Positions 108-56,867 of a DNA stretch of 58,911 nt are shown here, piece after piece. The first letter of the stretch is position 1; each line of letters starts with the position of its first letter. The stretch lies in IMG/VR virus record IMGVR_UViG_3300026316_000001, positions 1 through 58,911 of that record. One strand, 5' to 3'. The position numbers and the translations under genes were made by a program. Below the pieces are notes generated by a model. That model had not been told where the DNA came from. It saw nothing but the letters and a program-made list of their open reading frames with translations, and searched no databases. Origin of the DNA: a virus.

Positions 108-129
108 GCTTCCTCCAGGTGTAGACGTG

Positions 130-163
130 CCGGTCCGGCCCCGGGAGAGTGGGGCCGGACCGG
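130..163 (-). terminator. GC-rich hairpin after the DUF932-like gene
   Basis: ccggtccggcccc (130-142) pairs with ggggccggaccgg (151-163), a 13-bp stem just 3' of the stop at 176; no U-tract. Confidence 0.45.
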
Positions 164-175
164 CTGTTGCAGGGG

Positions 176-1369
176 TCAGGCGTCCAGCTTCACGCCGGCA
201 TAGTCGGCGAAGATCCGGAGCGCGTTCACCTTCGGGGCCGTGACCGACTTCTCGCCATCCAGCGAGCGCCAGAACCGGTACCCGTCGTCGCTCAGCCCGG
301 TGTCCTTCGCGCCGACCTTGGTCTCCCAGTCGCAGTACTCGATGACGGTCTGGAGACCGGCCCACGCGGTGTTACGTACGTTGGCCTGGGTGTCGGCCTG
401 GGTGAGCAGGGCCATCAGCTTGTCGCGCTTCTTGTCCCAGTTCTCCTGGGCCTTGGCGCTGGGCTCCTCGCCGGGGCCGAAGTTCTCGGTGACGATCCGG
501 TCGAAGACCCGGGGCATCATGGGCGTCGCGACCAGCTCGTTGCCGATGCGCGCCCACTCGTCGCCGTACGAGTAGGACAGCTTCAGGGCGGTCCGGGCGT
601 CCGAGAGGTTCATCTTCGCGTTCTTGGTGTGACGGATCGTGAACTTGCTGACGGCGCGGGCCAGGTTCCAGTTCGCGGTGTTCGCGCACACGGTGCGCAG
701 CAGAGTGATCGCGCCGGTCAGCGGGGTGCTCAGGTCGTGGCTGGTGCGGACCAGCATCCACAGCTGGGAGGCGTCCACGCCGCCGACCAGGACATCCTTG
801 GGCAGCTTCCAGCACATGAATGCCTGCTTGCCCTCGAACAGGACGCCACAGGCGGCTGCGTTGGGCTCGGCCACGTCCACGATCGCGTCGCCGAATCCGA
901 GGAACGCCTCCCGGTTGTTCACGACCTGGTAGTTCGGGCCACACGTGCCCAGCACCTGCCACTGCCTGGTGACGGGGTGCTGGCGGATCAGCTTGCGCAC
1001 GTTGGGGTCTTCGATGTACTGGGTCATCATCATCGGCGTGCGCTCGCCACTCGCGTCCGGCATCATGATCGGCTGGCCGTTGGCGCCGAGCACCGGCACC
1101 TCGTGGTGGGCGTAGTCGGGCACCTTCAGCACGTCGTAGTCCGCGTGGGCCGCGACCAGCAGCTCCTCGGCGGTGACCTGGTGGTCGAAGGTGACGCCAA
1201 GGTTGTGCCAGGCCGGCGCCCGGACGCTGGCGAACGCGGCGACGCCGCCGGTCTTGTCGATGCCGTGCTGGACCTTGTTCTCGGCGATGTCGTACTGGGT
1301 GCCCCAGCCGGTGACGGTCTGGTCCTTGGTCGGGTCATACAGGGTGTCATCGAACAGCGGGCTGGTCAT
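176..1369 (-). CDS. DUF932-like phage/plasmid protein (397 aa)
   Basis: Long high-GC3 ORF; LIRQHPVTRQWQVLGTCGPNYQVVNNREAF and the overall layout resemble the DUF932/TIGR03299 family; motif CTACACCTGGAGGAACCGCA precedes the ATG. Confidence 0.6.
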   Translation of the reverse strand: MTSPLFDDTLYDPTKDQTVTGWGTQYDIAENKVQHGIDKTGGVAAFASVRAPAWHNLGVTFDHQVTAEELLVAAHADYDVLKVPDYAHHEVPVLGANGQPIMMPDASGERTPMMMTQYIEDPNVRKLIRQHPVTRQWQVLGTCGPNYQVVNNREAFLGFGDAIVDVAEPNAAACGVLFEGKQAFMCWKLPKDVLVGGVDASQLWMLVRTSHDLSTPLTGAITLLRTVCANTANWNLARAVSKFTIRHTKNAKMNLSDARTALKLSYSYGDEWARIGNELVATPMMPRVFDRIVTENFGPGEEPSAKAQENWDKKRDKLMALLTQADTQANVRNTAWAGLQTVIEYCDWETKVGAKDTGLSDDGYRFWRSLDGEKSVTAPKVNALRIFADYAGVKLDA

Positions 1370-1406
1370 TGCGGTTCCTCCAGGTGTAGAGGTGGTGTTA
1401 GGTGTG

Positions 1407-1436
1407 ACGATACACCTCTCCAGATGGAGGTGTCAA
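1407..1436 (-). promoter_or_regulatory. Candidate sigma70-type promoter with an inverted repeat in the spacer
   Basis: Minus strand: TTGACA (1436-1431), 18 nt, TATCGT (1412-1407); ACACCTC/GAGGTGT inverted repeat at 1412-1433. Confidence 0.4.
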
Positions 1437-1446
1437 GCCAGACCGC

Positions 1447-1839
1447 TCAACCGGCGTGGGCAATCGCGTACTCACCGGTACCGAGAACCGCCCACTCGCG
1501 GTCAACCTCGTCCAGCTTCAGCGCGTCGAACGCCCGCTGAAGCACCCGGTCCAGCTCGCTGTGCCAGTGGGCCTCCAGCCGGTTCAGCACCTTCTCCGTT
1601 CGCCGGTTGGGTACCCGGTTGACCGCCTCCAGCTTCTGCTCCAGCTCCTCCTCCGGCGTGATGGCGCGGGCCGGCGGAAGCGCGGGCGGCCGGGCGCGAC
1701 GCTCGGCGGTCTCCTGGCGCGCGAAGGCCACGGCCCGCTCGCCGGCCAGCCGGCGGCGGCGCTCGACGCGGCGGCCCAGCAGCGGAGCGGGCAGGATCAG
1801 GCCGGCGGCAACCAGCACGGCGATCAGCAGGTGAAGCAC
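1447..1839 (-). CDS. Hypothetical N-terminally membrane-anchored protein (130 aa)
   Basis: GTG start after GAAGGGAGACGAC; hydrophobic LHLLIAVLVAAGLILPAPLL then a charged helical region; high GC3. Confidence 0.6.
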   Translation of the reverse strand: MLHLLIAVLVAAGLILPAPLLGRRVERRRRLAGERAVAFARQETAERRARPPALPPARAITPEEELEQKLEAVNRVPNRRTEKVLNRLEAHWHSELDRVLQRAFDALKLDEVDREWAVLGTGEYAIAHAG

Positions 1840-1901
1840 GTCGTCTCCCTTCGATGACCTCCCCCGGGCACCGTAACCCGCACCCGAGGAAGGTCAAGCG
1901 T

Positions 1902-2774: not shown

Positions 2775-2801
2775 GTCTGTTTCCTCTCTCCAGGTGTAGT
2801 G

Positions 2802-3197
2802 CTAGTCCGCCGGGCCGACCCAGCGGTAACCGCCGTCGTCGGTGAGTAGCCACCAGCCGTGGCCCTGCACCGTGTGGATCAGGGCCGGCGCGGTCAACGG
2901 GTCCACGTCGGTGCCGTGGCGGAACCGCCAGCCCTTGCGCTCACACTCCGTCCAGGTGGAGGAGTGTTCGGTCTCGTCGTGGCAGGCCGGGCACAGCGCG
3001 AGCAGGTTGCGCGGATCGTTAGCCAGCTCGCCGGCCGGACCACTGACCCCGCCCATCCCCCGAGCTTGCCGGTGATGCACCTGCACCACGCCGAACCGGC
3101 CGCAGCCCTCGCAGCGTCCCCAGCAGCGGGCACGCACCAGGGCCTGCGCCTGCTCCAGCTTCATGACAGCTCCGACCTGTTCGTTGACCTCGAACAT
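2802..3197 (-). CDS. HNH endonuclease
   Basis: CEGCG...VHHRQARGMGG...NLLALCPACHDETE (HNH/Cys4). ATG 3197 may be leaderless (TACAAT 8 nt upstream); alternative ATG 3164 follows GGAGCTGTC. Confidence 0.8.
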   Translation of the reverse strand: MFEVNEQVGAVMKLEQAQALVRARCWGRCEGCGRFGVVQVHHRQARGMGGVSGPAGELANDPRNLLALCPACHDETEHSSTWTECERKGWRFRHGTDVDPLTAPALIHTVQGHGWWLLTDDGGYRWVGPAD

Positions 3198-5254: not shown

Positions 5255-5306
5255 TCGTACCCCTGCTGTATAGTGTGGGTACACACCTGAAGCGAGGAGA
5301 CCTCCC

Positions 5307-6857
5307 ATGGCACGACCCGCCGCCCTGCCGGACCCCAAGCTGAACGACAAGCTGGACGACGCCTTCGGCCCAGAGCGACCGACCGGCCCGCTGACCCTCC
5401 ACCTGGAGCAGGCCGACCTGGAGACGGCACGCCAGAGCCTGGACGCCGCGATGGCTTACCTCCAGACACACCTGCCCCGCGTGGCCAAGGGTGAGACTGC
5501 CGAGATCACCGGCACCACCAAAGACGGCCGCCCGTTCACCAAGAAGTACGACTACGCCCAACTCGATGACGTGTCCGAGGCCATCCTGCCGCTACTCGGG
5601 CGCCTCGGTCTGTCCTGGCGCACCTGCCCGACACTCGTCCACCTGGAGGGTGAGCAGGGCTACCGCTTCGTGCTCCAGTACGCGCTGAAGCACGTCAACG
5701 GCGACGTGATCGAGGGGATGTGGCCGCTGCCGGACCGGGCCGACCCGCAGGCCGTGGGCAGCGTGATCACCTACGCCCGCCGGTACTGCCTGTGCGCGGT
5801 CACCGGCCTGGCCCCCGGTGGGGATGACGACGGTACCGCCGGCAGGGAGGCCAGCCGGCGCGGTGAGACCCTGGACGAGGCGTCCACGCTCAGCCTTCCG
5901 CCGCGCGAATCCGAGTCCATCGTGGCCGCGCTGGAGCCCCAGGCGCTCACCCCGCTCGCGCAGTACGGCGAGCTGTGGAAGACCGTGGTCGCCCGTCGCG
6001 CGGCCGGCAAGCCCAGCCCCGTCGAGCACGACGGGCGCATCCTCACCTGGACCGAGCTGTTCGGCTTCTCCCTGGCCCAGCGCATCGACGCGCTTAGCAC
6101 GCCCGCCGCGTGCAGGGCGTTCTACGACGAGGCGCGGGCGGCCGGTGGGGACGCGGCGCTGCCCTGGACCTGGGAGGACCAGCTCCCCAGCATCCGCCTG
6201 CTGGCCCGAGGCAACCAGATCAAGGCCGAGCTGGCGCAGCGCGCACAGGTCGTGGAGCTGGCCATCGCCTCAGCCTCCACCCCCGAGGAGCTGAGCGCCG
6301 CCTCCGATCTGGCCGAGGAGCTGGGCCAGCTCCTGCCGGACAAGCTGGAAGGCTTCCGACTGTTCGTCGCCGAACGCATGGGCGCACTCGGGCGCAAGCC
6401 GGCGACCGAGCGCGAGGTCGAGGACGTACCGCTACCCGAGCCGGAGACCGAGGCCCAGCACCAGGCGCCGGCCGCCGGGTCCGTGGCCGGCGGGGTGAAG
6501 TCCGTCCTGCTGATGGCCCAGATCTATCAGGGCGCCCCGCTGGCCGAGCTGACGCCGGAGATCGACGCCGCGTTCATGGAGCGCGGGGAGCTGACCGGCG
6601 ACGAGCACGGTGCCCTGCATGATGTCCTGGCCACCCGCCCGGAGCCCGGACCGGATCGCACCGCGCTGAACTTCCTCAGCTGGCAGGCCGAGATGGCGCC
6701 CAACGAGGTCGCCCTGGACGAGCTGGCCAAGCGGATCAAGGCGCTGCGCCAGATCCGCCCCGACCTGCTGGACGCCCGTCAGCACCGCGAGCTGCTGGCG
6801 GCCATCGCGGCGCGTCGCGCCCACCTGAACGAGCTGGAAGGGAAGCGGTACCGGTGA
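5307..6857 (+). CDS. erf: ERF-family single-strand annealing protein with a long C-terminal extension (516 aa)
   Basis: GSVITYARRYCLCAVTGL is the ERF-superfamily signature; preceded by TGTATAGTG and ACACCTGAAGCGAGGAG. Confidence 0.75.
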   Translation: MARPAALPDPKLNDKLDDAFGPERPTGPLTLHLEQADLETARQSLDAAMAYLQTHLPRVAKGETAEITGTTKDGRPFTKKYDYAQLDDVSEAILPLLGRLGLSWRTCPTLVHLEGEQGYRFVLQYALKHVNGDVIEGMWPLPDRADPQAVGSVITYARRYCLCAVTGLAPGGDDDGTAGREASRRGETLDEASTLSLPPRESESIVAALEPQALTPLAQYGELWKTVVARRAAGKPSPVEHDGRILTWTELFGFSLAQRIDALSTPAACRAFYDEARAAGGDAALPWTWEDQLPSIRLLARGNQIKAELAQRAQVVELAIASASTPEELSAASDLAEELGQLLPDKLEGFRLFVAERMGALGRKPATEREVEDVPLPEPETEAQHQAPAAGSVAGGVKSVLLMAQIYQGAPLAELTPEIDAAFMERGELTGDEHGALHDVLATRPEPGPDRTALNFLSWQAEMAPNEVALDELAKRIKALRQIRPDLLDARQHRELLAAIAARRAHLNELEGKRYR

Positions 6858-7384
6858 GCGCGAGCATGAGTCGAGCCGATCTGATGCGCGTGCAGGTCAT
6901 GGGGGTAGCGCTGGCCGCTGCTGCCCGTGACCTACTGGAGGGCGAGGCCCGCGAGGAGTGGGAGGGGCCGAACCGAACCCGGGTGACCTGGAGCTCCCCC
7001 GGCTTCGTGGCCGCCGCGTCGATCACCAACCGGACGCTGGAGGTGATCGACGACCAGGAGTTTCTTGCCTGGGTGTCCGAGCAGCACCCCGGCGAGGTGA
7101 TCATAGTGCGCCGGGCGCGCAATACCGAGTGGCTGAAGCAGCTCCGCGACCAGCTCGCCGCCGATGTGGCCGCCGGCCGCGAGGACGCTCCACCTGGAAC
7201 GAAGCTCTACGACGGCGACGAGTTCAAGGCGCTGGCCATCACGCCCGACCGCGAGCTGAAGCGCGCGATGTTCGAGGCCGCCCGGATGGCGATCATGCAC
7301 GGGGTATGGCCCGACGCTCCATCCATGTGGAACGCCGTGCAGGCCCTCATGAAGGGCGAGGAAACGACCGACCCGACCGGTTGA
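6854..7384 (+). CDS. Hypothetical protein (176 aa)
   Basis: GTGA overlap with the ERF stop; high GC3. Confidence 0.6.
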   Translation: MSASMSRADLMRVQVMGVALAAAARDLLEGEAREEWEGPNRTRVTWSSPGFVAAASITNRTLEVIDDQEFLAWVSEQHPGEVIIVRRARNTEWLKQLRDQLAADVAAGREDAPPGTKLYDGDEFKALAITPDRELKRAMFEAARMAIMHGVWPDAPSMWNAVQALMKGEETTDPTG

Positions 7385-7410
7385 CATAGGTGTCAAGCAT
7401 GGCCTAACAT
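7381..7410 (+). promoter_or_regulatory. Candidate promoter with a palindromic -35 box
   Basis: TTGACAtaggTGTCAA (7381-7396); TTGACA, 18 nt, TAACAT (7405-7410); followed by AGCGATACACCTGGAGGGCCACATG. Confidence 0.5.
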
Positions 7411-7441
7411 GTATCTCATAGCGATACACCTGGAGGGCCAC

Positions 7442-8724: not shown

Positions 8725-8759
8725 CCTATCCGCTATCCATCCACCTGGAGGTACCCGAG

Positions 8760-9280: not shown

Positions 9281-9628
9281 CTACCCGCCACCGGGCAGCG
9301 GCCCCAGCTTGGGAAGCTGGCTCGGGTCGGCCACGATCAGGCCCGACATGGCTCGCCTGGCCTCCACCACCTTCTCGTTGATCTGACGGTGGATGTGGTC
9401 GGCGAATCCCGGCGCGTTGTCCAGCTCCATCTGGATCTGGACGGCCAGGCCGCCGACCTGGAACATCACGGCCATGCGCAGCTTGCCGTCGGGGCCGGGG
9501 AAGACCTGGACCGCCGTCGTGACCTGGTTGAGCGCGGCCACCGCCTGCTGCATCTGGACGGTCAGCCGCTCGATCTCAGCGGTCAACTGCTCGCGCGTGG
9601 GGCCTTCCTGCTGGACCTCCTCGCTCAC
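9281..9628 (-). CDS. Coiled-coil protein, last gene of the lysis region (115 aa)
   Basis: GTGA overlap with the upstream stop; VSEEVQQEGPTREQLTAEIERLTVQMQQAVAALNQV. Confidence 0.55.
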   Translation of the reverse strand: MSEEVQQEGPTREQLTAEIERLTVQMQQAVAALNQVTTAVQVFPGPDGKLRMAVMFQVGGLAVQIQMELDNAPGFADHIHRQINEKVVEARRAMSGLIVADPSQLPKLGPLPGGG

Positions 9629-9933: not shown

Positions 9934-10228
9934 TCAACCACTCGCCGGCCGGGTGCTGCACCCTCCAGGTGATCACCAGACGCCAGGCCAGTACCACGTC
10001 CAGCGCGCCGAGGGTCACCGCGAACACCCACGGCGGAACCCGCAACACGATGTTGAGCAGCGAGATCCCCATGTTGACGGCGAGCACCAGGGATTTGGCC
10101 AGCAGGTTCCGGCCGATCGCGTACCGGCGCCACTCCGGCGAGCCGAGACCGTACAGCAGAACGAAGCCCAGGCTCATCAGGAAGCCTAGGCCCAGTTCCA
10201 CCACGAATATGAAGATCAGGTTGGGCAC
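9821..10228 (-). CDS. 4-TM membrane protein (135 aa); its tail overlaps the next gene by 113 nt
   Basis: GTG directly after TAG; IFIFVVELGLGFLMSLGFVLLYGL and further spans; GC3 collapses in the last ~37 codons. Confidence 0.55.
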   Translation of the reverse strand: MPNLIFIFVVELGLGFLMSLGFVLLYGLGSPEWRRYAIGRNLLAKSLVLAVNMGISLLNIVLRVPPWVFAVTLGALDVVLAWRLVITWRVQHPAGEWLNGGTQHVPEGGTRAEEVDPEQVPGGLDDGRRSAPDQR

Positions 10229-10803: not shown

Positions 10804-11574
10804 TTAGAACGTGCCGGCGTTCAGGCGACGCTGGAGCGCCTGCACGCACTGCGAGCGGGGCAGGCTCAGCACGCCGTCCTGCGCGGTGCCGAGGTAGCGC
10901 TGAAGCGCGCGGGTGGTGCTGAACGCGCTGTGCCCGTCCTGGTTGATGCCCTGCCCGTCCACGGCCAGCCCGGCGTGAACCAGCCGGTTCAGGTACACCT
11001 GGACAGCCCGCACGAGATCGGAGTGGCCGGGCGGCTGCGTGATGAAGCCGTCCACGGGGGTACCCATCCGCCGCTGCCACGCGGAGATCGTCATCGACCC
11101 GAGGACACCGTCCTCGTCCAGGTGGCCCGACGGTGGGCCGCCGGTCGGCCCCTGCGCCAGGGCCAGGTTCCACGGTGCGGTGCTGTGCTCGGCGGCGTGG
11201 TCGTACCCGGTGCAGGTGCGTCCGCTGTAGCAGGCGGAGCCGTGCCGGCCGGAGACGTGGACATGACTGGTGTGCGGGTCGCTGCCGGTGTACGCACGGG
11301 GCGCCCAGCCGTGCGACGCGGACCAGATCGTCCGGTTGTGGATCACGTACTCCACGTCCGGGCGACCCACCGCCGCGTTGACGATGGCCTTGGCCTGCTC
11401 GGTACCGGCCGGCGTCATCGGGTCGATGGCGTGCACCACACCACAGTCATCCTCGTTGTGGTCGGAGCAGCTTGCCTGGTGCGCGGAGTCCCCGATCCAA
11501 CCGACGACGGTACCGGGGAAGGCCGTCCAGATGGAGTGTCGGGCGGCGTCGAGGTTCGCGGCGAGGGTGGCCAT
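10804..11574 (-). CDS. Endolysin: zinc peptidase (M15/VanY-like) plus two peptidoglycan-binding repeats
   Basis: SAHQASCSDH...AID...DPHTSHVHVS (H-x-D and H-x-H metal ligands); DGVLGSMTISAWQRRMGTPVDG and a second PG_binding_1-like repeat. Confidence 0.75.
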   Translation of the reverse strand: MATLAANLDAARHSIWTAFPGTVVGWIGDSAHQASCSDHNEDDCGVVHAIDPMTPAGTEQAKAIVNAAVGRPDVEYVIHNRTIWSASHGWAPRAYTGSDPHTSHVHVSGRHGSACYSGRTCTGYDHAAEHSTAPWNLALAQGPTGGPPSGHLDEDGVLGSMTISAWQRRMGTPVDGFITQPPGHSDLVRAVQVYLNRLVHAGLAVDGQGINQDGHSAFSTTRALQRYLGTAQDGVLSLPRSQCVQALQRRLNAGTF

Positions 11575-20786: not shown

Positions 20787-21000
20787 CCGCACCCTCCTCC
20801 CGCAGGTAGCCCATCTGAACGAGCGCGAGCGTGCGGCCATCGGCCCTCAACCGGTACAGCTCGCCGGCCGCGAAGTCATCGAAGTTGACCATCGCCCGGT
20901 ACGCGCCCGGCCCGACGGTCGGCTCCTCGGGCTCCGACAGCGGGACCTCGACGGCCACGGGGCGGATGCTCTTGCGCGGCCGGCGTTCACCTGGAGGCAT
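20761..21000 (-). CDS. Hypothetical head-tail region protein (79 aa)
   Basis: ATG 21000 five nt after the upstream TGA; MPPGERRPRKSIRPVAVEVPLSEPEEP. Confidence 0.5.
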   Translation of the reverse strand: MPPGERRPRKSIRPVAVEVPLSEPEEPTVGPGAYRAMVNFDDFAAGELYRLRADGRTLALVQMGYLREEGADGDDQDSG

Positions 21001-27481: not shown

Positions 27482-27519
27482 GTGGCTACACAAGCAAGCG
27501 ATACACCTGGAGGGGCCAC

Positions 27520-38451: not shown

Positions 38452-39335
38452 CTGACGAACCTCCTGGACAGATCCAGATGCTCGCCGGGTCGCAGCAGCA
38501 CCTGCGAGCATCTGCATTGGATCACTTCTTCAGGTAGAGCGACAGGCCCGCGCGCCCCGGGGTGATCCAGCAGGGCCTGGCCCACCGCGAACGGCTCATC
38601 CAGGGGTACGCGCTGGCCGGTGCCGGGGGTACCGAGGTCGGCCGCGAGGTGGGTCGGGCGTACCCGCTCGTCGTGGGTGGCCAGCCAGCCGTGTTCCCAT
38701 TCGCCGCCGAGCTGGGCCGCGTAAGACTGGAAGCCGGCGTGCGTGCCGGCGTTGTAGGCACCGATGGCCTCGGTGCGCGCCACCACCAGCGCGCGGTTCT
38801 TCCAGGTGGCCACCTCGTTGTCGGAGAGCACGGTCTCGATCCGGGCGGCCAGCTCGCCGATCGCGGCGCCCTCGTGGTGAGCCTTGGCGACCTCGCTGGT
38901 GATGAGGGTGTAGACCTCGTCCGGCACGTTGGCCAGTCGGTTCTTGGCCACTTGCAGGTAGCTCTCGACGCGGCCGGGCGGCAGCGGCGCGGCGAGCATC
39001 ACGTCGTGCCAGGCGCTCTGGTAGATCTCGCGGATCTCCACATCGATCACGTCGCCGAGCGCGAGACGGAACGCGGGCGCGGCGGCGAAGACGGCCGGCG
39101 GGTCCACCACCCGCCCGTGGACAACCCGGTCCCGAACGCCATCGATCCACTTGGAGAGCATCCCGAGGTAGGAGCGGAACAGCGAACGCTCTGCCTTGAC
39201 CATCTGGGCGAAGCGCCGCCAGCGGATCGGCAGCCACGGATCCGGCGCGGTACCGGCCAGCGCCACAGCGCCCACCGCGACGGCGGTACCGGCGCCCGGC
39301 CCGGTCGGCTGTTGAGGCTGCTCGGGCTGGGTCAC
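38448..39335 (-). CDS. MuF/SPP1 gp7-like head morphogenesis protein (295 aa)
   Basis: GTGA overlap with the portal stop; NRALVVARTEAIGAYNAGTHAGF...WLATHDERVRPTHLAADG = Phage_Mu_F pattern. Confidence 0.75.
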   Translation of the reverse strand: MTQPEQPQQPTGPGAGTAVAVGAVALAGTAPDPWLPIRWRRFAQMVKAERSLFRSYLGMLSKWIDGVRDRVVHGRVVDPPAVFAAAPAFRLALGDVIDVEIREIYQSAWHDVMLAAPLPPGRVESYLQVAKNRLANVPDEVYTLITSEVAKAHHEGAAIGELAARIETVLSDNEVATWKNRALVVARTEAIGAYNAGTHAGFQSYAAQLGGEWEHGWLATHDERVRPTHLAADLGTPGTGQRVPLDEPFAVGQALLDHPGARGPVALPEEVIQCRCSQVLLRPGEHLDLSRRFVR

Positions 39336-41290: not shown

Positions 41291-41692
41291 TCACCCCTCG
41301 CGGGTTGCCAGGAAGCCGGTCACGTGCGAGAACGCCAGCGCAAGCGCGGGCAGCAGCAGCCATGGCCGGTCGCCCCAGTACCAGGCCAGCGGTGCGACCA
41401 CGGCCCCGGTCCAGGTGGACACACACCAGGGGCAGACAACCAGGTAGGCCAGCAGCGGCGGTCGATCAGCGTGGTTGGACATCACCATGGCCAGCGCCTT
41501 ACGGCGTTCCTCGACAGTGGGCTCCTGCTTGGTCCACGAGTGGGCTCGCCGCCAGGCGGCCACGATCCAGGCCCGGCGCGGTCGCTCGAAGATCTTGTCC
41601 GCCGTGATCATCCGGGTAGTCCGCGCCACGGCCAGCGCGTACACAACGAGGATGATCGGCGAGAGCATGAGCACAGCATAGGGGCGCTTCAC
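41291..41692 (-). CDS. DUF1360-like membrane protein (start GTG 41692 or ATG 41668)
   Basis: LSPIILVVYALAVARTTRMITADKIFERPR plus C-terminal TM spans and CPWC; located between terminase and portal. Confidence 0.55.
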   Translation of the reverse strand: MKRPYAVLMLSPIILVVYALAVARTTRMITADKIFERPRRAWIVAAWRRAHSWTKQEPTVEERRKALAMVMSNHADRPPLLAYLVVCPWCVSTWTGAVVAPLAWYWGDRPWLLLPALALAFSHVTGFLATREG

Positions 41693-41873: not shown

Positions 41874-43364
41874 CTAACCCGGGTAGCCGGGCAGCCGCGC
41901 GCCGAGTGGACCCAGCGAGGTGCGCCCGGGTAGCGGTGCCCTGGCCGGGCTCGCCGTGGTGGCGAACATCTTGACCCGCGAGGTCAGCCACAGCAGGGCG
42001 TACACAAGCGCGTCGATACGGTCCGGGCTCTTGGAGGTCTCCTCCGGCACCCAGTTGACCATCTGGGTCTCCAGGTTGCCGAGGTTCTGGCCGCGCACGT
42101 GGGAGACGTAGCCCTGCTCGTAGCGTGCGGCGACCGGTTCGGCGCGCAGCCGCTTGCCGATCTTGGCGGTGACCATCTTGACCGGCGGGTTGCCTCCAGG
42201 TGGAAACAGCCCCTCATCCTGCATCTCGCGGTAGGCCCGGACCAGCACCTCGCGCAACCAGCGCTTGCCCTGGTTGTCCTCGACGATCAGGACGCTCGCG
42301 CCGTACTCGATCACCATCGTCCAGGCCCGGCGTGCGGCGGCGTGCCCGACGATGCGCTTGCTCCAGTCGCCGAGCACGTAGTCCCGGCCGTCCACGCCCT
42401 TGCCGGCGGCGATCAGTCCGCACTCGTCGGAGGTCGGGTCGTCGGCGCCGGGTGGGTCCATGCCCACGACCACGTTGGTCAGCTCGGGCGGGCGGGCCGC
42501 CCGGTACGGCTCGATCATGCCGAGGCCCCAGAGGGCGCCCTCGGCCTCCATGATCAGCTCGCCGCCCAGCTCCTGGCGCCCCAGCCGGGTACCGGCGTAG
42601 CGCTTGTGCAGCTCGGCCAGCGCGGGTGCGGCCAGGTTGCCGGCGTTCTCGTACGTGGAGCCTCGGGTCAGCCAGACCGACCCGTCCGCACGGCCCTGCC
42701 ACTCCACGAGCTGCACGACCAGCTTGGGCGTGGTGGTGACCAGAGCGCGCGGGAAGTCGCCGGGGATGTCCGCACGCAGGCCCGGCATGATGCCCTCGGT
42801 CCACGACCCGTCAGGCTTCTTCCACTTGGCGAACTCATCCAGCCAGGCCGAGGCCGCGTTGTACCCGCGCCCCACGTCCTCGTCGTCGGCGCCCTCGATG
42901 TAGATCACCTGATGGTGATCGAAGATCTCGATGAACGGCTTGGGGCTCTTGATCAGGTGCCAGGCACCGCCGTCCCGGCCGTCCGTGTACCTGGACTCAG
43001 ACCCCAGCCGCCGCTCCAGCACCCGGCGCACGCCGGCCGGGCCGCCGATGCACTGGCGCATGGCGTCGGTCAACGTCTCGGCGATCAGCAGGTGCTCGGT
43101 AGGCCGGCCGGTCAGGTCCAGCGGGTACCGGATCGCCCGGTCCACGATCCACTCGGCGCCGGTCTGGGTCTTGCCCCAGCCCCGGCCGGTCTGGATGAGC
43201 CAGACGAACCACTTGCCGGCCGGCGTCTGTTGCTCGGGTCGGCCGATCCACCACCACTCGCGGCGGGCCATCTGCTCCAGCACGTGCACCGGCTGCTCGG
43301 CCAGCCAGCGCGCCTGCACCTCGGGGGAGAGCCGGGCCAGCTCCTCCATCGGTGATCGCGCCAT
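41874..43364 (-). CDS. terL: Terminase large subunit (496 aa)
   Basis: Walker A-like QTGRGWGKTQTG; ATPase and nuclease-sized; followed by the portal. Confidence 0.85.
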   Translation of the reverse strand: MARSPMEELARLSPEVQARWLAEQPVHVLEQMARREWWWIGRPEQQTPAGKWFVWLIQTGRGWGKTQTGAEWIVDRAIRYPLDLTGRPTEHLLIAETLTDAMRQCIGGPAGVRRVLERRLGSESRYTDGRDGGAWHLIKSPKPFIEIFDHHQVIYIEGADDEDVGRGYNAASAWLDEFAKWKKPDGSWTEGIMPGLRADIPGDFPRALVTTTPKLVVQLVEWQGRADGSVWLTRGSTYENAGNLAAPALAELHKRYAGTRLGRQELGGELIMEAEGALWGLGMIEPYRAARPPELTNVVVGMDPPGADDPTSDECGLIAAGKGVDGRDYVLGDWSKRIVGHAAARRAWTMVIEYGASVLIVEDNQGKRWLREVLVRAYREMQDEGLFPPGGNPPVKMVTAKIGKRLRAEPVAARYEQGYVSHVRGQNLGNLETQMVNWVPEETSKSPDRIDALVYALLWLTSRVKMFATTASPARAPLPGRTSLGPLGARLPGYPG

Positions 43365-43840: not shown

Positions 43841-44308
43841 TCAGACCGGGTTCACCCAGCAGTGCGCGATCCCGGCGCCAGACTGGTACTCCTCGTCCAC
43901 CGGCAGGTTGTCGATGGCCATCTTGCAGCCGGTGCTCACGGCATGGACGTCGGCCTGGTTCACCTGCATGGCGTACGGCACGCTCGGATCGTAGGTGAAC
44001 TCGATGTACCAGCGCGGCGTGCCGTGCTTGGCTCCCTTCGGCCCGCGCTCCAGGTCGGTCTGGGTGACCACGGTCGGGATGTTGCCCCGCCAGTAGATGA
44101 TCTGGAACGGCGTGCTGGGCAACGTCCAGGTGGACTCGAAGCTGATGACGTGGCGCGTGTGGTACCCGGTCTGGAGTGCCGGCGGCTTGTGTGGGCGGGC
44201 CGGCTCGGAGCCGGAGCCGAACTCGCCGAGCACGTCGGGACGCATTACCGCGAGCGCCACGCCGGCCAGGCCGAGCAGCACAACGGGCCACCTGAGCAGG
44301 GTCTTCAC
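43841..44308 (-). CDS. Membrane-anchored exported protein (155 aa)
   Basis: GTGA overlap; VKTLLRWPVVLLGLAGVALAV signal anchor, then a beta-rich domain. Confidence 0.55.
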   Translation of the reverse strand: MKTLLRWPVVLLGLAGVALAVMRPDVLGEFGSGSEPARPHKPPALQTGYHTRHVISFESTWTLPSTPFQIIYWRGNIPTVVTQTDLERGPKGAKHGTPRWYIEFTYDPSVPYAMQVNQADVHAVSTGCKMAIDNLPVDEEYQSGAGIAHCWVNPV

Positions 44309-44487: not shown

Positions 44488-44508
44488 GTGACTTTCCTCC
44501 AGGTGGAT

Positions 44509-44828: not shown

Positions 44829-44962
44829 GGTTTCCTCCAGGTGGATTGAATGGCCCGGACGATCACGGTGATCGCCCAGGTGATCAGGAACGCGGCATTC
44901 CAGATAGCCTGCCGGCGGTGCGCCGCGCGATGCCTCCGCTGGCAGGTGTGGCAGTAGCTCAC
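44825..44962 (-). CDS. Tiny CxxC plus TM protein (45 aa; translated by hand)
   Basis: GTGA and ATGA overlaps; VSYCHTCQRRHRAAHRRQAIWNAAFLITWAITVIVRAIQSTWRKP; high GC3. Confidence 0.4.
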   Translation of the reverse strand: MSYCHTCQRRHRAAHRRQAIWNAAFLITWAITVIVRAIQSTWRKP

Positions 44963-46435: not shown

Positions 46436-46452
46436 GTTTCCTCCAGTTGGAT

Positions 46453-47409: not shown

Positions 47410-47494
47410 GTTTCCTCCAGGTGTGGGGGCCTTACATGATAGGTCAAGCCTATCAGCACGGTACGACAGTTTACAGCCCGCGTTCAGATGGCGC

Positions 47495-48010: not shown

Positions 48011-48019
48011 GAATCCTCC

Positions 48020-48942: not shown

Positions 48943-49328
48943 AGTCCCTCCATCTGGACGGCCAGCAGATAGTCCCAGGTGGTGAACGGGACCGCCCGGT
49001 CGTCCACGTAGGCCACGGCCGGTAGCTTCCGGTTGGTGACAAGCACCATCTCCTGGTCGTTCCAGAAGTCTGGGTGCTGGTTCCCGGCGTCCGGGTCGCC
49101 CGTGTACCAGGTGGAAACGATGCCATGATCAACCAGCCACGCAGCCACCCGCTCCGGATCCCGCGAGGTGAACACGAACACCGCATAGCGCTCCTGGAGC
49201 TTGTGCAGCCCCTCGATCGCGCCGGGCATGGGCTCGTCGTAGATCGTGCCGTCGTGCCAGCCCTTGGCGTACCGATGGATCACACCGTCGAAATCGACGG
49301 CCACCGTCTGCGTCACCTTCTCCACCAT
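48939..49328 (-). CDS. HAD-superfamily phosphatase, 5'(3')-nucleotidase-like (129 aa)
   Basis: VAVDFDGVIHRYAKGW (DxDG motif I); GACCTGGATGG precedes the ATG. Confidence 0.55.
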   Translation of the reverse strand: MVEKVTQTVAVDFDGVIHRYAKGWHDGTIYDEPMPGAIEGLHKLQERYAVFVFTSRDPERVAAWLVDHGIVSTWYTGDPDAGNQHPDFWNDQEMVLVTNRKLPAVAYVDDRAVPFTTWDYLLAVQMEGL

Positions 49329-49389: not shown

Positions 49390-49905
49390 TCAGTCAACCC
49401 GCCGCAGCCCTTCCCGGATGCTCTCGGCCGCCCAGGCGCTCGCAAGCTTGGGCTCCGGCCCCTGCTCGTCAATGCGCGGAGAGGTCCGCTTCTCGATCCA
49501 CGCGGCGATCACCTCGACCGCCACGGCCGCACGGTGAGCACTCCAGTCGGAGTTGTCGGCGGGCACGTATCCGCACACGCAGGTGGTGAGGGTGGCGAAG
49601 ACGTGCTTGGCCTGCTCCTCGATGATCTGACCCAGCAGTTCAGGAACGTGACGCATAGCGCCGGCCTCCAATGCGTGCTTCCACCTGGAGAAGGTCGCTT
49701 CGCTCACGTCGACACGCGCCTCCCAACGCTGGCGCCTCTCCTCGAAGTGACCAAGGATCTCCGCCAGCGTCTTGGCCAGCGTTTCGTTGCGCGATCGGAG
49801 AATGTCGATCTCGCCGGTTGCCGGTACAGCGGCGAGTATGGCGGTCGGCGCGGGCCAACGTACATCCGGCGGTAGCGCACGCCTACCCTCAGGAATGTTG
49901 ATCAC
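49390..49905 (-). CDS. Hypothetical protein (171 aa)
   Basis: ORF from the track, GTG start, high GC3. Confidence 0.55.
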   Translation of the reverse strand: MINIPEGRRALPPDVRWPAPTAILAAVPATGEIDILRSRNETLAKTLAEILGHFEERRQRWEARVDVSEATFSRWKHALEAGAMRHVPELLGQIIEEQAKHVFATLTTCVCGYVPADNSDWSAHRAAVAVEVIAAWIEKRTSPRIDEQGPEPKLASAWAAESIREGLRRVD

Positions 49906-50134: not shown

Positions 50135-50455
50135 CTAATACGCCTTTCGGTAGTACCGCGTATTCCCACCTTCGCGGTGGGTCACCGGTTGCAGTAGTCC
50201 GTGCGCTGCCATGTCGCGCACGACCTGCCCGGCCACCGTCCAGTTGGTTGGGCCACCGCCGAAGACCTTCCTGGCCAGGACCGGCCGCCAGATCTCGGCT
50301 CCACGTGGAAGCGTCTCGATGTACTCGACCATCTGCTCGTACCGTTCCCAGCGGGCCAGCCGCTTCTCCGACATTGCCCCCTGCCGGTCCACCCTTACCT
50401 GGCAGGCGTAGCACTGGAGGCTGTACGGGCCGGCGTGACGAAGTCTCATGGTCAT
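50135..50455 (-). CDS. Hypothetical protein, possibly winged-helix (106 aa)
   Basis: ATGA overlap; MTMRLRHAGPYSLQCYACQVRV...VVRDMAAHGLLQPV. Confidence 0.5.
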   Translation of the reverse strand: MTMRLRHAGPYSLQCYACQVRVDRQGAMSEKRLARWERYEQMVEYIETLPRGAEIWRPVLARKVFGGGPTNWTVAGQVVRDMAAHGLLQPVTHREGGNTRYYRKAY

Positions 50456-54780: not shown

Positions 54781-55048
54781 CCGGTTCCTCCACCTGGAGC
54801 GTGGCCAGCCGGCACGCCTGCTGGTCGCAGTGGATCGTCATCGTCATCGGCGGCGGGGGGGCCACCTTCACGCCCTCGACGATCCCGGTCACGACAGCCT
54901 CGTGCCATTGGCGCTGGGCCACGTCGCGCACGCCGGCCCGCCACAGCTTCAGCGTCTCGTCATACGGGCGCAGCGGCGAGCGGCCGGGCGGCGCGAGCTG
55001 GGCCAGGTACTGCTGGAACCAGTGGTCCGGCATCGGGGGCGGCTTCAC
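54761..55048 (-). CDS. Hypothetical protein (95 aa)
   Basis: GTGA overlap; VKPPPMPDHWFQQYLAQLAPPGRSPLRPYDETLKLWRAG. Confidence 0.45.
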   Translation of the reverse strand: MKPPPMPDHWFQQYLAQLAPPGRSPLRPYDETLKLWRAGVRDVAQRQWHEAVVTGIVEGVKVAPPPPMTMTIHCDQQACRLATLQVEEPGAAPQG

Positions 55049-55530
55049 GGTGCCTCCAGTTCGGTGTGGACCGCCACGGGGGCAGGTGCGCGGCCCAGTT
55101 GGTAGGCGTTGAGGATGATCGGCTCCACCCAATCCCCGACGGTCCCGCCGTCGGGGAACTTGGTGGCGGCCAGGAACTCCTGCTCGAAGGAGGTGACCTC
55201 GGCCTCGACCGACGCCAGCTTGGCCTTGATGCCCAGCGCGAGCGCCCGCCACCGCTGGCGGGTCAGCAGCTCCCACGCCTGTTCTTGCGCGGCCGGGGAG
55301 CGCTGGAGGCGACGGGTCGGCGAGTACTTCACGTCCGGGTGATCGCGCGGGGGCAAGGTCAGGCGGAACTCCACCTCGCGGTCGCGGTACACGAAGCTGA
55401 TCACCGCCTGGTTGGTGTCGCGGTCCCAGCCGTACTGGAAGCGTCGCGCGCCGAAGCGGACCAGGGTGCGCTCGATCTCGGCGCGGCTGCCGCTGGAGTC
55501 CACGGTGGTGTCGCTGGCGTAGGTGGCCAC
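55045..55530 (-). CDS. Hypothetical protein (161 aa)
   Basis: GTG 3 nt after the upstream TGA; ORF from the track. Confidence 0.55.
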   Translation of the reverse strand: MATYASDTTVDSSGSRAEIERTLVRFGARRFQYGWDRDTNQAVISFVYRDREVEFRLTLPPRDHPDVKYSPTRRLQRSPAAQEQAWELLTRQRWRALALGIKAKLASVEAEVTSFEQEFLAATKFPDGGTVGDWVEPIILNAYQLGRAPAPVAVHTELEAP

Positions 55531-55533
55531 GCC

Positions 55534-55734
55534 TCAGCCCTCCCTCTTCAGCCGCAGGATCCCGGCCCCGGTGACCCGGTGGTGGCCGCCGGCTGTGCGG
55601 GTGTACTCCTCGCGCTTGACCTTGCCGGCCTTGATCCACCGCACGACGGTCTTGGGTACGACGCGGAACAGGACGGCCACCTCGCCGGGGGTGTAGAGGG
55701 CATCCGGGTCGATCTTGTCCGATGTGAAGGTCAT
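55534..55734 (-). CDS. Excisionase/MerR-type HTH DNA-binding protein (66 aa; alternative start 55743)
   Basis: ATGA overlap; LYTPGEVAVLFRVVPKTVVRWIKAGKV...HHRV resembles HTH_17. Confidence 0.6.
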   Translation of the reverse strand: MTFTSDKIDPDALYTPGEVAVLFRVVPKTVVRWIKAGKVKREEYTRTAGGHHRVTGAGILRLKREG

Positions 55735-55982
55735 TTCGGGCACCTCGCCTTACCGACCTGCTCCAGCCGGTCCAGCCGTGCCTGGAGGCGGCCCTGCATC
55801 TTCAGCAGCTCCTGCGCCAGGCGGCGGCCGATCTCGCGGCGGTCGATCGCGTCGTGTTCGGGGAACCAGTCGTGCGCCAGTCGCTCCAGGGCCTCCCGCT
55901 GGCCGGCGGTGTGTTCCACGGCCAGCATGGCGGCCTGCGAGCCGACGTACTCGATCTGCTCCTTACTCGGGAACGCCGGCAT
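55731..55982 (-). CDS. Hypothetical protein (83 aa)
   Basis: ATG after GGGAGGTGGGAG; MPAFPSKEQIEYVGSQAAMLAVEH. Confidence 0.5.
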   Translation of the reverse strand: MPAFPSKEQIEYVGSQAAMLAVEHTAGQREALERLAHDWFPEHDAIDRREIGRRLAQELLKMQGRLQARLDRLEQVGKARCPK

Positions 55983-56295
55983 CTCCCACCTCCCTGCCGG
56001 ACAAGCGCTCCAGGTGGAACGTGCCGATTCGCTTGCCGTGCCGCCATACCGTCCCGGTACCGGCGGCGCGGTCGGCCAGCAGCAGCACGTCCGCCCCGGC
56101 ACCAGTGCTGCGCGGGTCGAACACCCCGACCCCCTTCAGGTACGCCAGCACCTGCGCGGCGAGCTGCACCTCTCCGGTCGGGTCGTCGTCGGGCGGCGCC
56201 TCGACGTAGACCAGGGTGGGCGCGATGCCGGCGTGGACCCTGCCCACCGGACCGGGGAACGTCACCCGGTACCCGATCCCTGACTCAGCCATCAC
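55963..56295 (-). CDS. Hypothetical protein (110 aa)
   Basis: ORF from the track. Confidence 0.5.
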   Translation of the reverse strand: MMAESGIGYRVTFPGPVGRVHAGIAPTLVYVEAPPDDDPTGEVQLAAQVLAYLKGVGVFDPRSTGAGADVLLLADRAAGTGTVWRHGKRIGTFHLERLSGREVGDAGVPE

Positions 56296-56521
56296 TGCCC
56301 TCCTTCCAGCTGGAGTTACCGAAGGTCCACCAGCCGAGGTAGCCCACCACGCCCGCGTACACGGCCGGGATGATGCACGCCAGGGCGAGCTGCTGGCTGC
56401 CCAGGGCGGCGGCCAGGAAGAAGCCCGCGACGGCGGCCAGCAGGGCGATCAGCGACGAGTACCGCAGTACCGCGACCAGGTGATCCAGCGAATCGTCATT
56501 GATCTTCTTGATTCGGCTCAT
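56285..56521 (-). CDS. 2-TM membrane protein (78 aa)
   Basis: ATGA overlap; SSLIALLAAVAGFFLAAALG...LACIIPAVYAGVVGYLGWW. Confidence 0.55.
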   Translation of the reverse strand: MSRIKKINDDSLDHLVAVLRYSSLIALLAAVAGFFLAAALGSQQLALACIIPAVYAGVVGYLGWWTFGNSSWKEGSDG

Positions 56522-56820
56522 ATGTGCATTCCGGTACTGTGCCGGCCGTCGTGCTCGGCCTTGCGCTGCTCCATCAGCTTCTGCACCTCGTCCGAGGGCG
56601 GCTCCAGCACCTCCACGAAGGACCAGTCCGTGGGACCGTAGACCGCGCACGTGGTGTCTTGCAGCTCCTCATCGAAGGTGCGCAGCATGAGGCCGCTCTC
56701 GCTGTTCTCCAGGGCGATCAGCGGCGCCTCATAGTCGCGCACACCGGGCCGCGTGCCGCCCGCTCCGGGCTTGCCCCAGGCGTCCTCGCGGTGCAGGTGC
56801 GACCAGACGGTGACCTTCAT
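56518..56820 (-). CDS. Hypothetical protein (100 aa)
   Basis: ATCCACCTGGAGGGATAGGC precedes ATG 56820; MKVTVWSHLHREDAWGKPGAGG. Confidence 0.6.
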   Translation of the reverse strand: MKVTVWSHLHREDAWGKPGAGGTRPGVRDYEAPLIALENSESGLMLRTFDEELQDTTCAVYGPTDWSFVEVLEPPSDEVQKLMEQRKAEHDGRHSTGMHI

Positions 56821-56867
56821 GCCTATCCCTCCAGGTGGATCGAACTCGTCCGTGTGGGCGAGTGACG

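Follow-up and report, generated by a model that had tools for sequence, protein, structure and literature searches.

A start-associated motif in an uncultured actinophage-like genome is a near-palindromic word that also recurs within genes

IMG/VR virus record IMGVR_UViG_3300026316_000001, analysed here over its positions 1 to 58,911 (the window: the whole stretch of 58,911 bases, 68–69% G+C), is a genome of an uncultured, actinophage-like lineage, in which a short motif containing a Shine–Dalgarno (SD) sequence recurs just upstream of start codons; that motif is the subject of this report. Because a 99-bp direct repeat ends the contig on both sides (1–99 = 58813–58911), we take it as a complete genome, either circularly closed or terminally redundant. 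About 100 genes were called from codon usage (our own, uncurated calls), and protein identities come from PHROG and Pfam matches, with about 60 proteins scanned. On the minus strand, a block of structural genes occupies ~43.3 to ~9.3 kb and includes those for terminase, portal, the MuF-like protein, a protein of 1631 aa, capsid and tape measure as well as a holin/lysis region; further genes encode an Erf-type recombinase, an HNH endonuclease, a DUF932 protein and many small unassigned products. The Pfam scan yielded an HNH domain, an HTH_17 domain and a weak sigma region-4 match; among the ~60 proteins scanned, many of the small ones unassigned, it found no methylase, methyltransferase or other modification gene, no integrase, no recognisable repressor and no ParB.

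Relatives, all of them metagenomic, were reached via a protein database and exact-protein look-ups: a 60.7-kb IMG/VR genome (loci L001, L014 and L023; proteins 60–82% identical), a contig 92–95% identical to the window (L101), and Logan and JGI contigs (L024–L028 and L102–L105) whose gene order around the DUF932 gene is as in the window. The clade members were covered as pieces of 10–21 kb. Megablast with 5 kb of the window found no match among deposited phages, viral-contig searches with DUF932, Erf and a tail protein found no relatives, and in a capsid tblastn the best match was Actinoplanes phage phiAsp2 at ≤41% identity, there being no close deposited phage relative.

Counted against a shuffled background, as the first-pass annotation had proposed, the motif is strongly enriched: the exact 10-mer CACCTGGAGG has 14 copies against 0.22 expected from dinucleotide shuffles (maximum 2), and at one mismatch or fewer there are 47 copies against 7.5. 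That annotation had reported a nearly identical 11- to 13-mer before at least 11 starts, and all 11 of the copies that it listed lie where it placed them; both of its subtypes (cTACACC/gaTACACC and aTCCACC) are present, as are the weaker copies that it saw before start 5307 and, twice, in the capsid leader. Nine exact and two one-mismatch copies sit 4–12 nt 5' of starts called from codon usage. The start-linked sites and the other copies outside genes are these:

112..121, minus strand: start copy tcTACACCTGGAGG, 4 nt before ATG 107, after a G+C-rich hairpin 3' of the DUF932 gene; orthologous copies at L023 11268, L025 11300 and L101 11250.
1377..1386, minus: start copy cTACACCTGGAGG, 7 nt before ATG 1369 (DUF932 protein), in a ~30-nt leader behind a sigma-70-like promoter; covered by a 12-genome alignment.
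2787..2796, minus: start variant cTACACCTGGAGAgagg (one mismatch), 12 nt before ATG 2774 (290-aa protein with a C2H2-like Cys/His motif).
5284..5293, plus: degenerate copy CACCTGAAGC, before the Erf start at 5307.
7427..7436, plus: start copy gaTACACCTGGAGG, 5 nt before ATG 7442; orthologous copies at L023 2999, L024 3469 and L025 3816, and in L101.
8740..8751 (core 8742–8751), plus: start copy aTCCACCTGGAGG, a perfect dyad, 8 nt before ATG 8760; conserved in L101.
20988..20997, plus: exact 10-mer tTCACCTGGAGG, between two minus-strand genes 47 nt apart, to both of which it is antisense.
27381..27390 and 27405..27414, minus: CACCTGGAAG and CACCTGAAGG, each with one mismatch to the 10-mer, ~200 nt from the start of the capsid gene within its long leader; not start-associated.
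27504..27513, plus: start copy gaTACACCTGGAGG, 6 nt before ATG 27520 of a gene divergent from the capsid gene; counterpart beside the capsid gene in L001 (6337, minus).
44496..44507 (core 44496–44505), minus: start copy TGAaTCCACCTGGAGGaaa, a perfect dyad, 8 nt before ATG 44487.
44834..44845 (core 44834–44843), minus: start copy caaTCCACCTGGAGGaaa, a perfect dyad, 5 nt before ATG 44828.
46440..46451 (core 46440–46449), minus: start copy TGAaTCCAACTGGAGGaaa, a perfect dyad with centre AC (one mismatch to the 10-mer), 4 nt before ATG 46435 (Acb2/Tad1-like).
47414..47423, minus: start copy ccCACACCTGGAGG, 4 nt before GTG 47409; counterpart at L014 6188.
48947..48958, minus: start dyad TCCAGATGGAGG with another centre, 4 nt before ATG 48942, within the end of the overlapping upstream gene.
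54787..54798, minus: start dyad TCCAGGTGGAGG, 6 nt before GTG 54780, within the upstream gene.
56299..56314, minus: start dyad TCCAGCTGGAAGGAGG, before GTG 56295, within the upstream gene.
56828..56839 (core 56828–56837), minus: start copy gaTCCACCTGGAGG, a perfect dyad, 7 nt before ATG 56820 and ~30 nt 3' of a tRNA gene; counterpart after a tRNA-like 3' end at L023 13195.
57685..57694: intergenic dyad gTCCATCTGGAg, just 3' of the stop of gene 57696–57992; not start-associated.

Three copies lie in ~25- to 35-nt leaders behind good sigma-70-like promoters, and others come directly after a stop codon, or after a hairpin or a tRNA. The idea that the motif marks the first gene after a gap holds in one direction only: of the 56 genes preceded by 12 nt or more of gap, 11 have it versus none of the 43 coupled or abutting genes (Fisher p = 0.002), but the remaining 45 gap genes do without. 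Coupled genes had likewise been said to lack the motif, which is true of all 43, except that three of them have a variant (the dyads at starts 48942, 54780 and 56295). All motif-led genes are non-structural, namely, the DUF932 gene and both of its neighbours, two genes of a small rightward operon at 7.4–9.2 kb, a small gene that diverges from the capsid gene, another four small ones at 44–47.5 kb (including the Acb2/Tad1-like gene) and the gene after the tRNA; the genes of the structural block have no start-linked copies. GGAGG is found 2–15 nt before the start of 33 genes, with CANNT immediately 5' of it in 12 of these. Predicted SD accessibility is 0.28 for motif genes versus 0.47 for other SD genes (p = 0.02), and RNA folding around the sites revealed no common or conserved secondary structure. 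Upstream of the motif no sequence is conserved past two bases; three copies share the extended identity (T)GAATCCA(C/A)CTGGAGGAAA.

Five exact copies of CACCTGGAGG lie beyond those listed in the first pass. Three are within genes in the sense direction, at 5640 (+, Erf), 9962 (−, holin) and 42193 (−, terminase), one at 38398 (+) is antisense within the gene of the 1631-aa protein, and the last, at 20988 (+), is intergenic and antisense to its flanking genes and therefore has no possible SD role.

Rather than an extended SD sequence, the motif is a near-palindromic word that includes the SD half. The four-base arms of the subtype aTCCACCTGGAGg, TCCA-CC-TGGA, are reverse complements of each other, and the start sites as a class read T(C/A)CA-CC-TGGAG(G), a near-palindrome whose right half contains the SD core GGAG. 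The perfect dyad TCCANNTGGA (TCCA-NN-TGGA) occurs 32 times against 0.58 expected, which makes it by far the most over-represented palindrome of the window (66-fold over base composition, among arms of 4 or 5 and gaps of 0–8). TGGAG stands on at least one side in 28 of the 32, three of the other four being gTCCA..TGGAc; the full form is [C/G]TCCA-NN-TGGA[G/C], with CC or GG at the centre in 18 cases. A less biased search for start-linked members of the family, with the pattern NNCANNTGGAN, gave 14 matches whose left ends are TC (8), TA (5) or CA (1) and whose centre is other than CC in four: TCCAGATGGAGG (48942), TCCAGGTGGAGG (54780), TCCAGCTGGAAGGAGG (56295) and TCCAACTGGAGG (46435), with GA, GG, GC and AC among these centres. 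It is therefore the dyad, and not CACCT itself, that the start sites have in common. CACCT had been described as resembling the anti-SD sequence without being complementary to the 16S rRNA tail, and it is indeed non-complementary to the standard actinobacterial 16S 3' tail (read by eye; the host's tail may differ); it looks anti-SD-like because the centre and the inner left half-site mirror the SD half. Across the genome, the 32 perfect dyads are joined by six start copies with one mismatch. A literature search for the motif sequence returned only unrelated primer lists.

Most perfect dyads (25 of the 32) lie within genes, where 1.8 are expected (~14-fold enrichment; maximum 8 in 500 trials) when codon order is shuffled within each gene, a procedure that preserves codon usage and amino-acid composition. 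They fall in all three frames (11, 9 and 5, against 0.2, 1.4 and 0.0 expected), although a dyad in frame 0 demands Ser-x-Trp and one in frame 2 demands CCA and GGA, which make up just 5% of Pro and 7% of Gly codons, respectively. Codon usage was considered as a cause and rejected for the dyad (25 versus 1.8); it is adequate for the exact 10-mer, of which called genes hold 3 copies against 0.76 expected, which is not significant (the holin copy at 9962 falls outside this count). These coding copies of the 10-mer encode His-Leu-Glu-Gly, Pro-Pro-Gly-Gly or Leu-Gln-Val. The first-pass annotation had held that a similar frequency of its 11-mer inside coding regions would speak against its reading: coding DNA has no such frequency of the exact 10-mer, but in effect it does of the palindromic core. 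The sites within genes are these, with a strand where a 10-mer gives one:

2951..2960: dyad TCCAGGTGGA, HNH endonuclease gene, frame 0, Ser-Thr-Trp; retained in L025.
5398..5407: dyad cTCCACCTGGAg, Erf gene.
5638..5649, plus: dyad and exact 10-mer TCCACCTGGAGG, Erf gene, codons V-H-L-E-G.
7189..7198: dyad, gene 6884–7384, frame 2, Pro-Pro-Gly with rare CCA and GGA; retained in L024.
7322..7331: dyad TCCATGTGGA, ~60 nt upstream of the promoter at 7381.
9426..9435: dyad, gene 9281–9628; retained in L023, L024 and L025 with differing centres, in proteins 32–35% identical.
9962..9971, minus: exact 10-mer aTCACCTGGAGG, not a perfect dyad, holin gene 9821–10228.
11526..11535: dyad TCCAGATGGA, gene 10804–11574.
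16510..16519: dyad, gene 14986–16908, frame 2, rare codons.
19085..19094: dyad, tape-measure gene; retained in L001.
19503..19512: dyad cTCCAGGTGGAg, gene 19419–19958, Pro-Pro-Gly, rare codons.
21034..21043: dyad, gene 21006–21545.
29909..29918: dyad gTCCAGATGGAc, gene 29622–31052.
31493..31502: dyad cTCCACCTGGAg, gene 31249–33363; retained in L001.
37863..37872: dyad, gene of the 1631-aa protein.
38396..38407, plus: dyad and exact 10-mer, antisense to the gene of the 1631-aa protein.
39146..39155: dyad, MuF-like gene; retained in L014 with the centre changed.
41410..41419: dyad gTCCAGGTGGAc, gene 41291–41704; retained in L014 with centre and amino acid changed.
42193..42204, minus: dyad and exact 10-mer, terminase gene, Pro-Pro-Gly-Gly, rare codons.
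44125..44134: dyad gTCCAGGTGGAc, gene 43841–44308.
49680..49689: dyad, gene 49390–49905; conserved in L101.
50300..50309: dyad TCCACGTGGA, gene 50135–50374.
56009..56018: dyad, gene 55963–56295; retained in L023.

The TGGAG side of the intragenic dyads lies on the sense strand only in 7 cases, on the antisense strand only in 10, on both in 4 and on neither in 4; because this G-flanked side has no sense-strand bias, the intragenic dyads are not internal SD-like sequences. Nor do their centres show a bias of orientation (CC on the sense strand 9 times, GG 5 times). In strict register, 5 of 15 are kept in orthologous genes of a relative against 11.6% of random windows of the same shape (p = 0.02); with a one-base shift and a second high-scoring segment pair allowed, retention rises to about 7 of 16, several with altered centres. 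The terminase site, encoding Pro-Pro-Gly-Gly, reads CCACCTGGAGG in the window and its exact reverse complement, CCTCCAGGTGG, in the relative, with rare codons and the dyad in both. Judged from the sequence, the dyad is selected at the DNA level within genes.

A second palindrome, CGGTACCG, is also frequent in the window, with 33 copies (e.g., at 1476, 2502, 5831, 11400, 11508, 15204, 24242, 30437, 39248, 39284, 47753, 56055 and 57635), 31 of them intragenic versus 2.8 expected from codon-order shuffling; they occupy all three frames, and eight use the rare Val codon GTA. Its density is 2–5 per 10 kb in the relatives against 0.19 per 10 kb in 1 Mb of high-GC bacterial genome loci, and it is not start-associated. 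Co-location of the two palindromes was considered and found unconvincing, CGGTACCG lying within 65 nt of 5 dyads where about 2 are expected.

One perfect dyad occupies the promoter of the DUF932 gene, and the promoters of two other motif-led genes bear a different symmetrical sequence:

1407..1436, minus: sigma-70-like promoter TTGACA-18-TATCGT of the DUF932 gene, its −35 and extended −10 conserved in 12 genomes.
1419..1428: perfect dyad CTCCAGATGGAG in an operator-like position, in the spacer of that promoter between TTGACA and TATCGT.
7381..7410, plus: promoter TTGACA-18-TAACAT, overlapped by the dyad TTGACA-N4-TGTCAA (7381–7396); feeds the motif-led gene at 7442 and is conserved in L023 and L024.
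27454..27469, plus: another TTGACA-N4-TGTCAA dyad, located on the promoter that drives the motif-led gene at 27520.

CTCCAnnTGG(A) is found at the matching spacer position in L023, L024, L025, L027, L103, L104 and L105, with conserved arms around a centre of TC, CG, TG or GG; the dyad is absent from the spacer in L028 and L102 and broken by one base in L101. Genomes with the spacer dyad, L027 excepted, also have the SD-linked copy 50 nt downstream, and L028 and L102 have neither. A role at the RNA level is unlikely for the spacer dyad, because it lies upstream of the expected transcription start. As for TTGACA-N4-TGTCAA, it overlaps the −35 of both promoters that bear it, each of which drives a small motif-led gene, and from its sequence and position it is probably the operator of a different regulator.

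Aligned across 12 genomes, the DUF932 promoter region has a conserved −35 and extended −10 and is followed by a variable leader; 8 of the 12 have the motif. Orthologous start copies exist in L023–L025 for the DUF932 gene, the gene after its downstream hairpin, the gene behind the TTGACA-N4-TGTCAA promoter and the Erf gene, and CACCTGGAG is the commonest SD-containing 9-mer of L023, L024 and L025. The gene upstream of DUF932 always has CACCTGGAGAGAGG (L023, L024, L025 and L101), and the Erf starts of L024, L025, L026, L104 and L105 carry exact CACCTGGAG, the window copy having decayed. By our gene calls, 13 loci contain 68 start-linked copies, with the consensus (T/C)(C/A/T)CACCTGGAG(G/A) and spacers of mostly 4–8 nt (modal 4–5). 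Orthologous starts keep the motif where proteins are 45–75% identical and the flanks diverge, which argues for purifying selection beyond that on an SD. The density of TCCANNTGGA in the window, its relatives and unrelated DNA is as follows:

Window: 5.4 per 10 kb.
L101, L014, L023, L024, L103, L104 and L105: 4.8–7.9 per 10 kb.
L025, L026 and L027: 3.8 per 10 kb.
L001: 3.2 per 10 kb.
L102: 2.1 per 10 kb.
More distant members with the same capsid family: 0–1.7 per 10 kb.
Unrelated high-GC phage contigs: 3 copies in 107 kb.
phiAsp2: none in 50 kb.
High-GC bacterial genome loci, mostly actinobacterial: 0.14 per 10 kb over 1 Mb.

The 107 kb of unrelated phage contigs, phiAsp2 and the 1 Mb of bacterial loci rule out a general property of high-GC DNA, and since enrichment tracks lineage the cause should be specific to the phage clade or its host. 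We treat as a separate matter the distantly related L029 (52% G+C, encoding a C5 DNA methylase), which has 8 copies of CCCCTGGAG in 21 kb on both strands, not start-linked (e.g., 1625, 1893 and 13646 on the plus strand; 15542, 8916, 7804, 4172 and 1588 on the minus strand).

The reading that we prefer, tentatively and at somewhat less than even confidence, is that a sequence-specific protein acting as a dimer, most likely a regulator, recognises the dyad as a word in DNA, and that this word doubles as the ribosome-binding site (RBS) of early genes. The protein would read the word on double-stranded DNA, and would probably be encoded by the phage, given that enrichment goes with the phage lineage. 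On the promoter, and at short leaders and intercistronic sites, it would act as an operator or roadblock, coordinating a class of early and accessory genes; the half-site GGAG would also set the RBS when it falls 4–12 nt before a start, and the anti-SD-like left half may mildly mask the SD in mRNA by local pairing (predicted accessibility 0.28 versus 0.47). The first-pass proposal that the motif is specifically a translational or RNA-processing signal fits poorly: the same dyad is enriched ~14-fold within genes, in all frames and without sense bias, and once sits in a promoter spacer. A signal acting only in RNA is disfavoured because it does not predict antisense, all-frame copies made of rare codons.

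Several points weigh against such a DNA-reading regulator. No binding protein was identified. Intergenic copies are placed more tightly than an operator needs, about 14 lying exactly at the SD and only two perfect dyads (1419 and 57685) being intergenic and away from starts. Start sites have a near-invariant CC centre and a relaxed outer left arm, and intragenic sites have strict arms and a freer centre, a contrast that comes partly from how the sites were selected. A classical helix-turn-helix dimer would normally have a larger site than one of 10–12 bp with 2 bp between the arms, and a transcription-blocking regulator would be expected to be harmful within late structural genes. Compared with L101, the arms are not detectably better conserved than the background (7 differences in 120 positions versus 6.3%) and the promoter copy is broken; the co-enrichment of CGGTACCG (33 copies) hints at a cause broader than one regulator.

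The search for a binder adds to these points. The only candidate examined, the protein at 1902–2774 (−; 290 aa), itself motif-led, is encoded by a variable gene adjoining the DUF932 gene; as a whole it is not common to all of the motif-rich genomes. It is predicted to have an N-terminal alpha-beta-beta-beta-alpha domain, a C-x5-C-x12-H-x3-H motif and a long helical tail, and it contains an invariant Y-x-C-x5-C-x3-F-x8-H-x3-H pattern like that of a classical C2H2 zinc finger. In L023 and L026 this N-terminal domain is joined instead to one that has ParB-like sequence motifs, the Cys/His half stands alone in L025, L104 and L105, and L027 and L028 have at this place two proteins with ParB-like motifs, one matching DUF6551. 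No single domain tracks the motif, the domains being distributed inconsistently among motif-rich genomes, and the AlphaFold model of the 290-aa protein (pLDDT 75, pTM 0.33) had no Foldseek match in the PDB with E < 0.4. Other candidate DNA-binding proteins are the HTH_17 protein at 55534–55734 and the 200-aa protein at 54178–54780 with the weak sigma region-4 match.

The motif may instead be a start-associated sequence (SAS) of the kind described from Cluster K mycobacteriophages (GGGATAGGAGCCC) and Cluster EF Microbacterium phages (GGGAAAGGACCCC), for which no function is known (PMC3203893, PMC7302621): the whole 11- to 13-mer would act in mRNA at initiation, alone or through a host or phage RNA or protein that binds it, and would provide a class of non-structural genes with a shared RBS that is efficient or regulated; the intragenic palindromes would be a separate matter. 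We consider this unlikely, though much at the starts is in keeping with it. Every intergenic sense copy lies 4–12 nt before a start and GGAGG is a canonical SD, with CANNT directly 5' in 12 of the 33 GGAGG genes; only non-structural genes are involved, coupled genes lack the motif (none of 43), the core CACCTGGAG including its CC centre is near-invariant across the 68 start-linked copies of the clade, and SD accessibility differs (p = 0.02). Position, distribution and absence from other phages all parallel published SAS (PMC3203893, PMC7302621). What this explanation leaves out is the 14-fold excess of intragenic dyads in all frames and on both strands, and the copy in the promoter spacer; moreover, CACCU is non-complementary to the standard actinobacterial 16S 3' tail, and start dyads with centres GA, GG, GC and AC make symmetric arms, rather than CACCT, the shared feature.

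The likeness to Cluster K SAS that the first-pass annotation drew is accordingly partial, holding for position, gene class and conservation beyond 16S pairing, and failing on asymmetry, single orientation, restriction to starts and the extended form. In both systems a ~13-bp motif with an SD core sits at the RBS position and is conserved past what pairs with 16S rRNA, there are ~10–19 copies per genome before non-structural genes preceded by a gap, and the motif is conserved across a phage cluster before unrelated genes; published SAS are absent elsewhere, and the motif here is specific to its clade among the phage contigs and bacterial loci sampled. The outer bases of published SAS are symmetric too (GGG...CCC). 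The sequence itself differs, however; SAS have been described as lacking palindromic symmetry, keeping to a single orientation and hardly ever occurring anywhere but at starts, whereas here we find a near-palindrome with 25 intragenic dyads in both orientations and one in a promoter spacer; and about half of SAS have an extended upstream inverted repeat (ESAS), of which we found none.

A DNA-level mark without a transcriptional role is a rather unlikely alternative: the sites would serve modification, nicking (as an HNH target), packaging or condensation, or the distinction of self from host, and the SD would supply half of each start-linked site. Sites are genome-wide, late structural genes included, and lack orientation bias; a second palindrome, CGGTACCG, is co-enriched in the clade (31 intragenic copies versus 2.8), and all relatives have a conserved HNH endonuclease gene. 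Against these stand the promoter-spacer and leader positions, which look regulatory, the absence of methyltransferase or modification genes from the ~60 proteins scanned, and the consideration that targets of modification or nicking need not be over-represented; the idea that the SD supplies a free half-site fails on the invariant CC centre at starts. Still less probable, in our judgement, is a clade-wide ‘address’ made of short palindromes (TCCA-NN-TGGA and, separately, CGGTACCG), maintained by selection even within structural genes in spite of the rare codons needed, by which a phage factor would tell its own DNA from that of the host, for example to protect, mark or organise the replicating genome. 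The same factor, or the same word in mRNA, would switch the early RBSs, so that the element would serve both as DNA and as RBS.

That the words have no dedicated function, having been multiplied by biased mutation, repair or recombination or by duplication of start cassettes and then kept by descent, strikes us as improbable. The three copies with the extended identity that ends in CTGGAGGAAA would fit it, as would two indel junctions relative to L101 within 5–25 nt of a copy, the lack of excess conservation at 6% divergence and the turnover of sites among relatives. Yet the junctions are near the motif and not within it (a recombination hot-spot was rejected for the same reason), orthologous starts keep their copies though the flanks are saturated with changes, and enrichment in all frames at the cost of rare and Trp codons needs a strong directional force, compared with which known repair biases are far weaker. 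The junctions themselves are two clean deletions in the window relative to L101 (~94% identical). The one at 102–107 (L101 11264–11625) cost the window a 118-aa gene, whose start codon and RBS motif are now joined to the following gene at its fourth codon, and the gene starting at 107 crosses the junction of the terminal repeats; the other, at 8719/8720 (L101 2076–2906), removed ~830 bp including another motif-led gene.

A further explanation, to which we give very little credence, is an RNA-processing signal, at or near which a host or phage endoribonuclease would cut, either making 5' ends near the SD or inactivating early mRNAs. The precedent is RegB of phage T4, which cuts GGAG in early RBSs; in T4 control by RegB and RegA, a phage factor acts on a GGAG-containing sequence in the initiation regions of one temporal class of genes. 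Copies directly after stop codons (44496, 46440 and 8742), a hairpin (112) and a tRNA (56828) would suit such cutting, as by analogy with RegB targets would the early, non-structural class of genes, but no nuclease candidate is tied to the motif, conserved secondary structure is absent around the sites, and the antisense and promoter copies go unexplained. The T4 factors act on RNA, no comparable protein was found here, and they too would leave antisense intragenic copies unaccounted for. Least credible of all is that the motif belongs to a promoter, as a −10-like box with which a phage-directed RNA polymerase holoenzyme would make leaderless or very short-leader mRNAs, since the placing of CCTGGA at −12 to −7 of the start codon (with a 4-nt spacer) and the weak sigma-70 region-4 match in the 200-aa protein at 54178–54780 are set against the lack of a conserved −35 or other upstream sequence, a spacing to the start that varies from 4 to 12 nt, several copies within leaders behind good sigma-70-like promoters, and the simpler identity of GGAGG at this distance as an SD.

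Two known systems resemble the regulator that we propose. In the stoperators of Cluster A mycobacteriophages, one phage protein (gp71 in L5) bound to DNA blocks both initiation and elongation (PMC3203893, PMC9283540). They are similar in that a short word recurs ~30 times genome-wide, once at an early promoter, and stoperators are often near gene starts or stops. Stoperators are asymmetric 13-mers, bound by a monomer, oriented with transcription and mostly in short intergenic gaps, whereas the sites here are dyad-symmetric, mostly intragenic and without orientation bias; stoperators also belong to temperate phages with a known repressor, and neither repressor nor integrase was seen here among the ~60 proteins scanned. 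The second system is that of ParB-family proteins, KorB at O_B of plasmid RK2 and Noc at its sites, where a short palindrome has from a dozen to several dozen copies per replicon, some on promoters and others distant or intragenic. We see in this a functional analogy only, of dispersed palindromes with some promoter copies; the KorB and Noc sites are palindromes of ~13–16 bp, as against 10–12 bp here, and none of the scanned proteins of the window matched ParB, ParB-like motifs being seen only in the relatives L023, L026, L027 and L028, beside the DUF932 gene.

Other features of the window came to light on the way. The motif-led gene at 46166–46435 (−) encodes 89 aa with an Acb2/Tad1 hairpin domain (Pfam E = 1.5e–10) and has homologues in L014 and L028; this family consists of nucleotide sponges that act against CBASS and Thoeris. 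The tRNA, 88 nt at 56868–56955 (−), scored 45 bits with Rfam and was missed by ARAGORN, and in an 875-nt gene-free stretch (56960–57600 region) there are two more T-arm-like sequences (GGGGTTCGACTCCCC-like, minus strand) that no tool recognised. The holin gene at 9821–10228 (−; Phage_holin_2, E = 3e–13) was missed by the codon-usage caller and had looked like a 295-nt gap; further gaps of more than 200 nt (48011–48339, 49906–50134, 43350–43555 and 28755–28955) may conceal genes. The 1631-aa protein (33556–38451, −), in the head-morphogenesis region, has a NUDIX hydrolase domain at residues 1241–1353.

SAS have been known from actinobacteriophages since 2011, with no mechanism. What is new here is an actinophage motif embedded in the RBS that is a DNA dyad also present within genes. 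It offers a clue to SAS, in that the part beyond SD pairing is the symmetric partner of the SD half. Were a binder found, the dyad would represent a new phage regulator/operator pair in an uncultured actinophage lineage, the co-control of early and accessory genes, including the Acb2/Tad1-like anti-defence gene, would be explained, and other SAS-type motifs would be worth re-examining for hidden dyad symmetry. If the less probable notion of a clade-wide address were true, the SAS of Clusters K and EF, with their symmetric GGG...CCC ends, would be half-hidden DNA dyads. Recoding or synthesis of such a genome would erase ~25 intragenic sites unless these were recognised.

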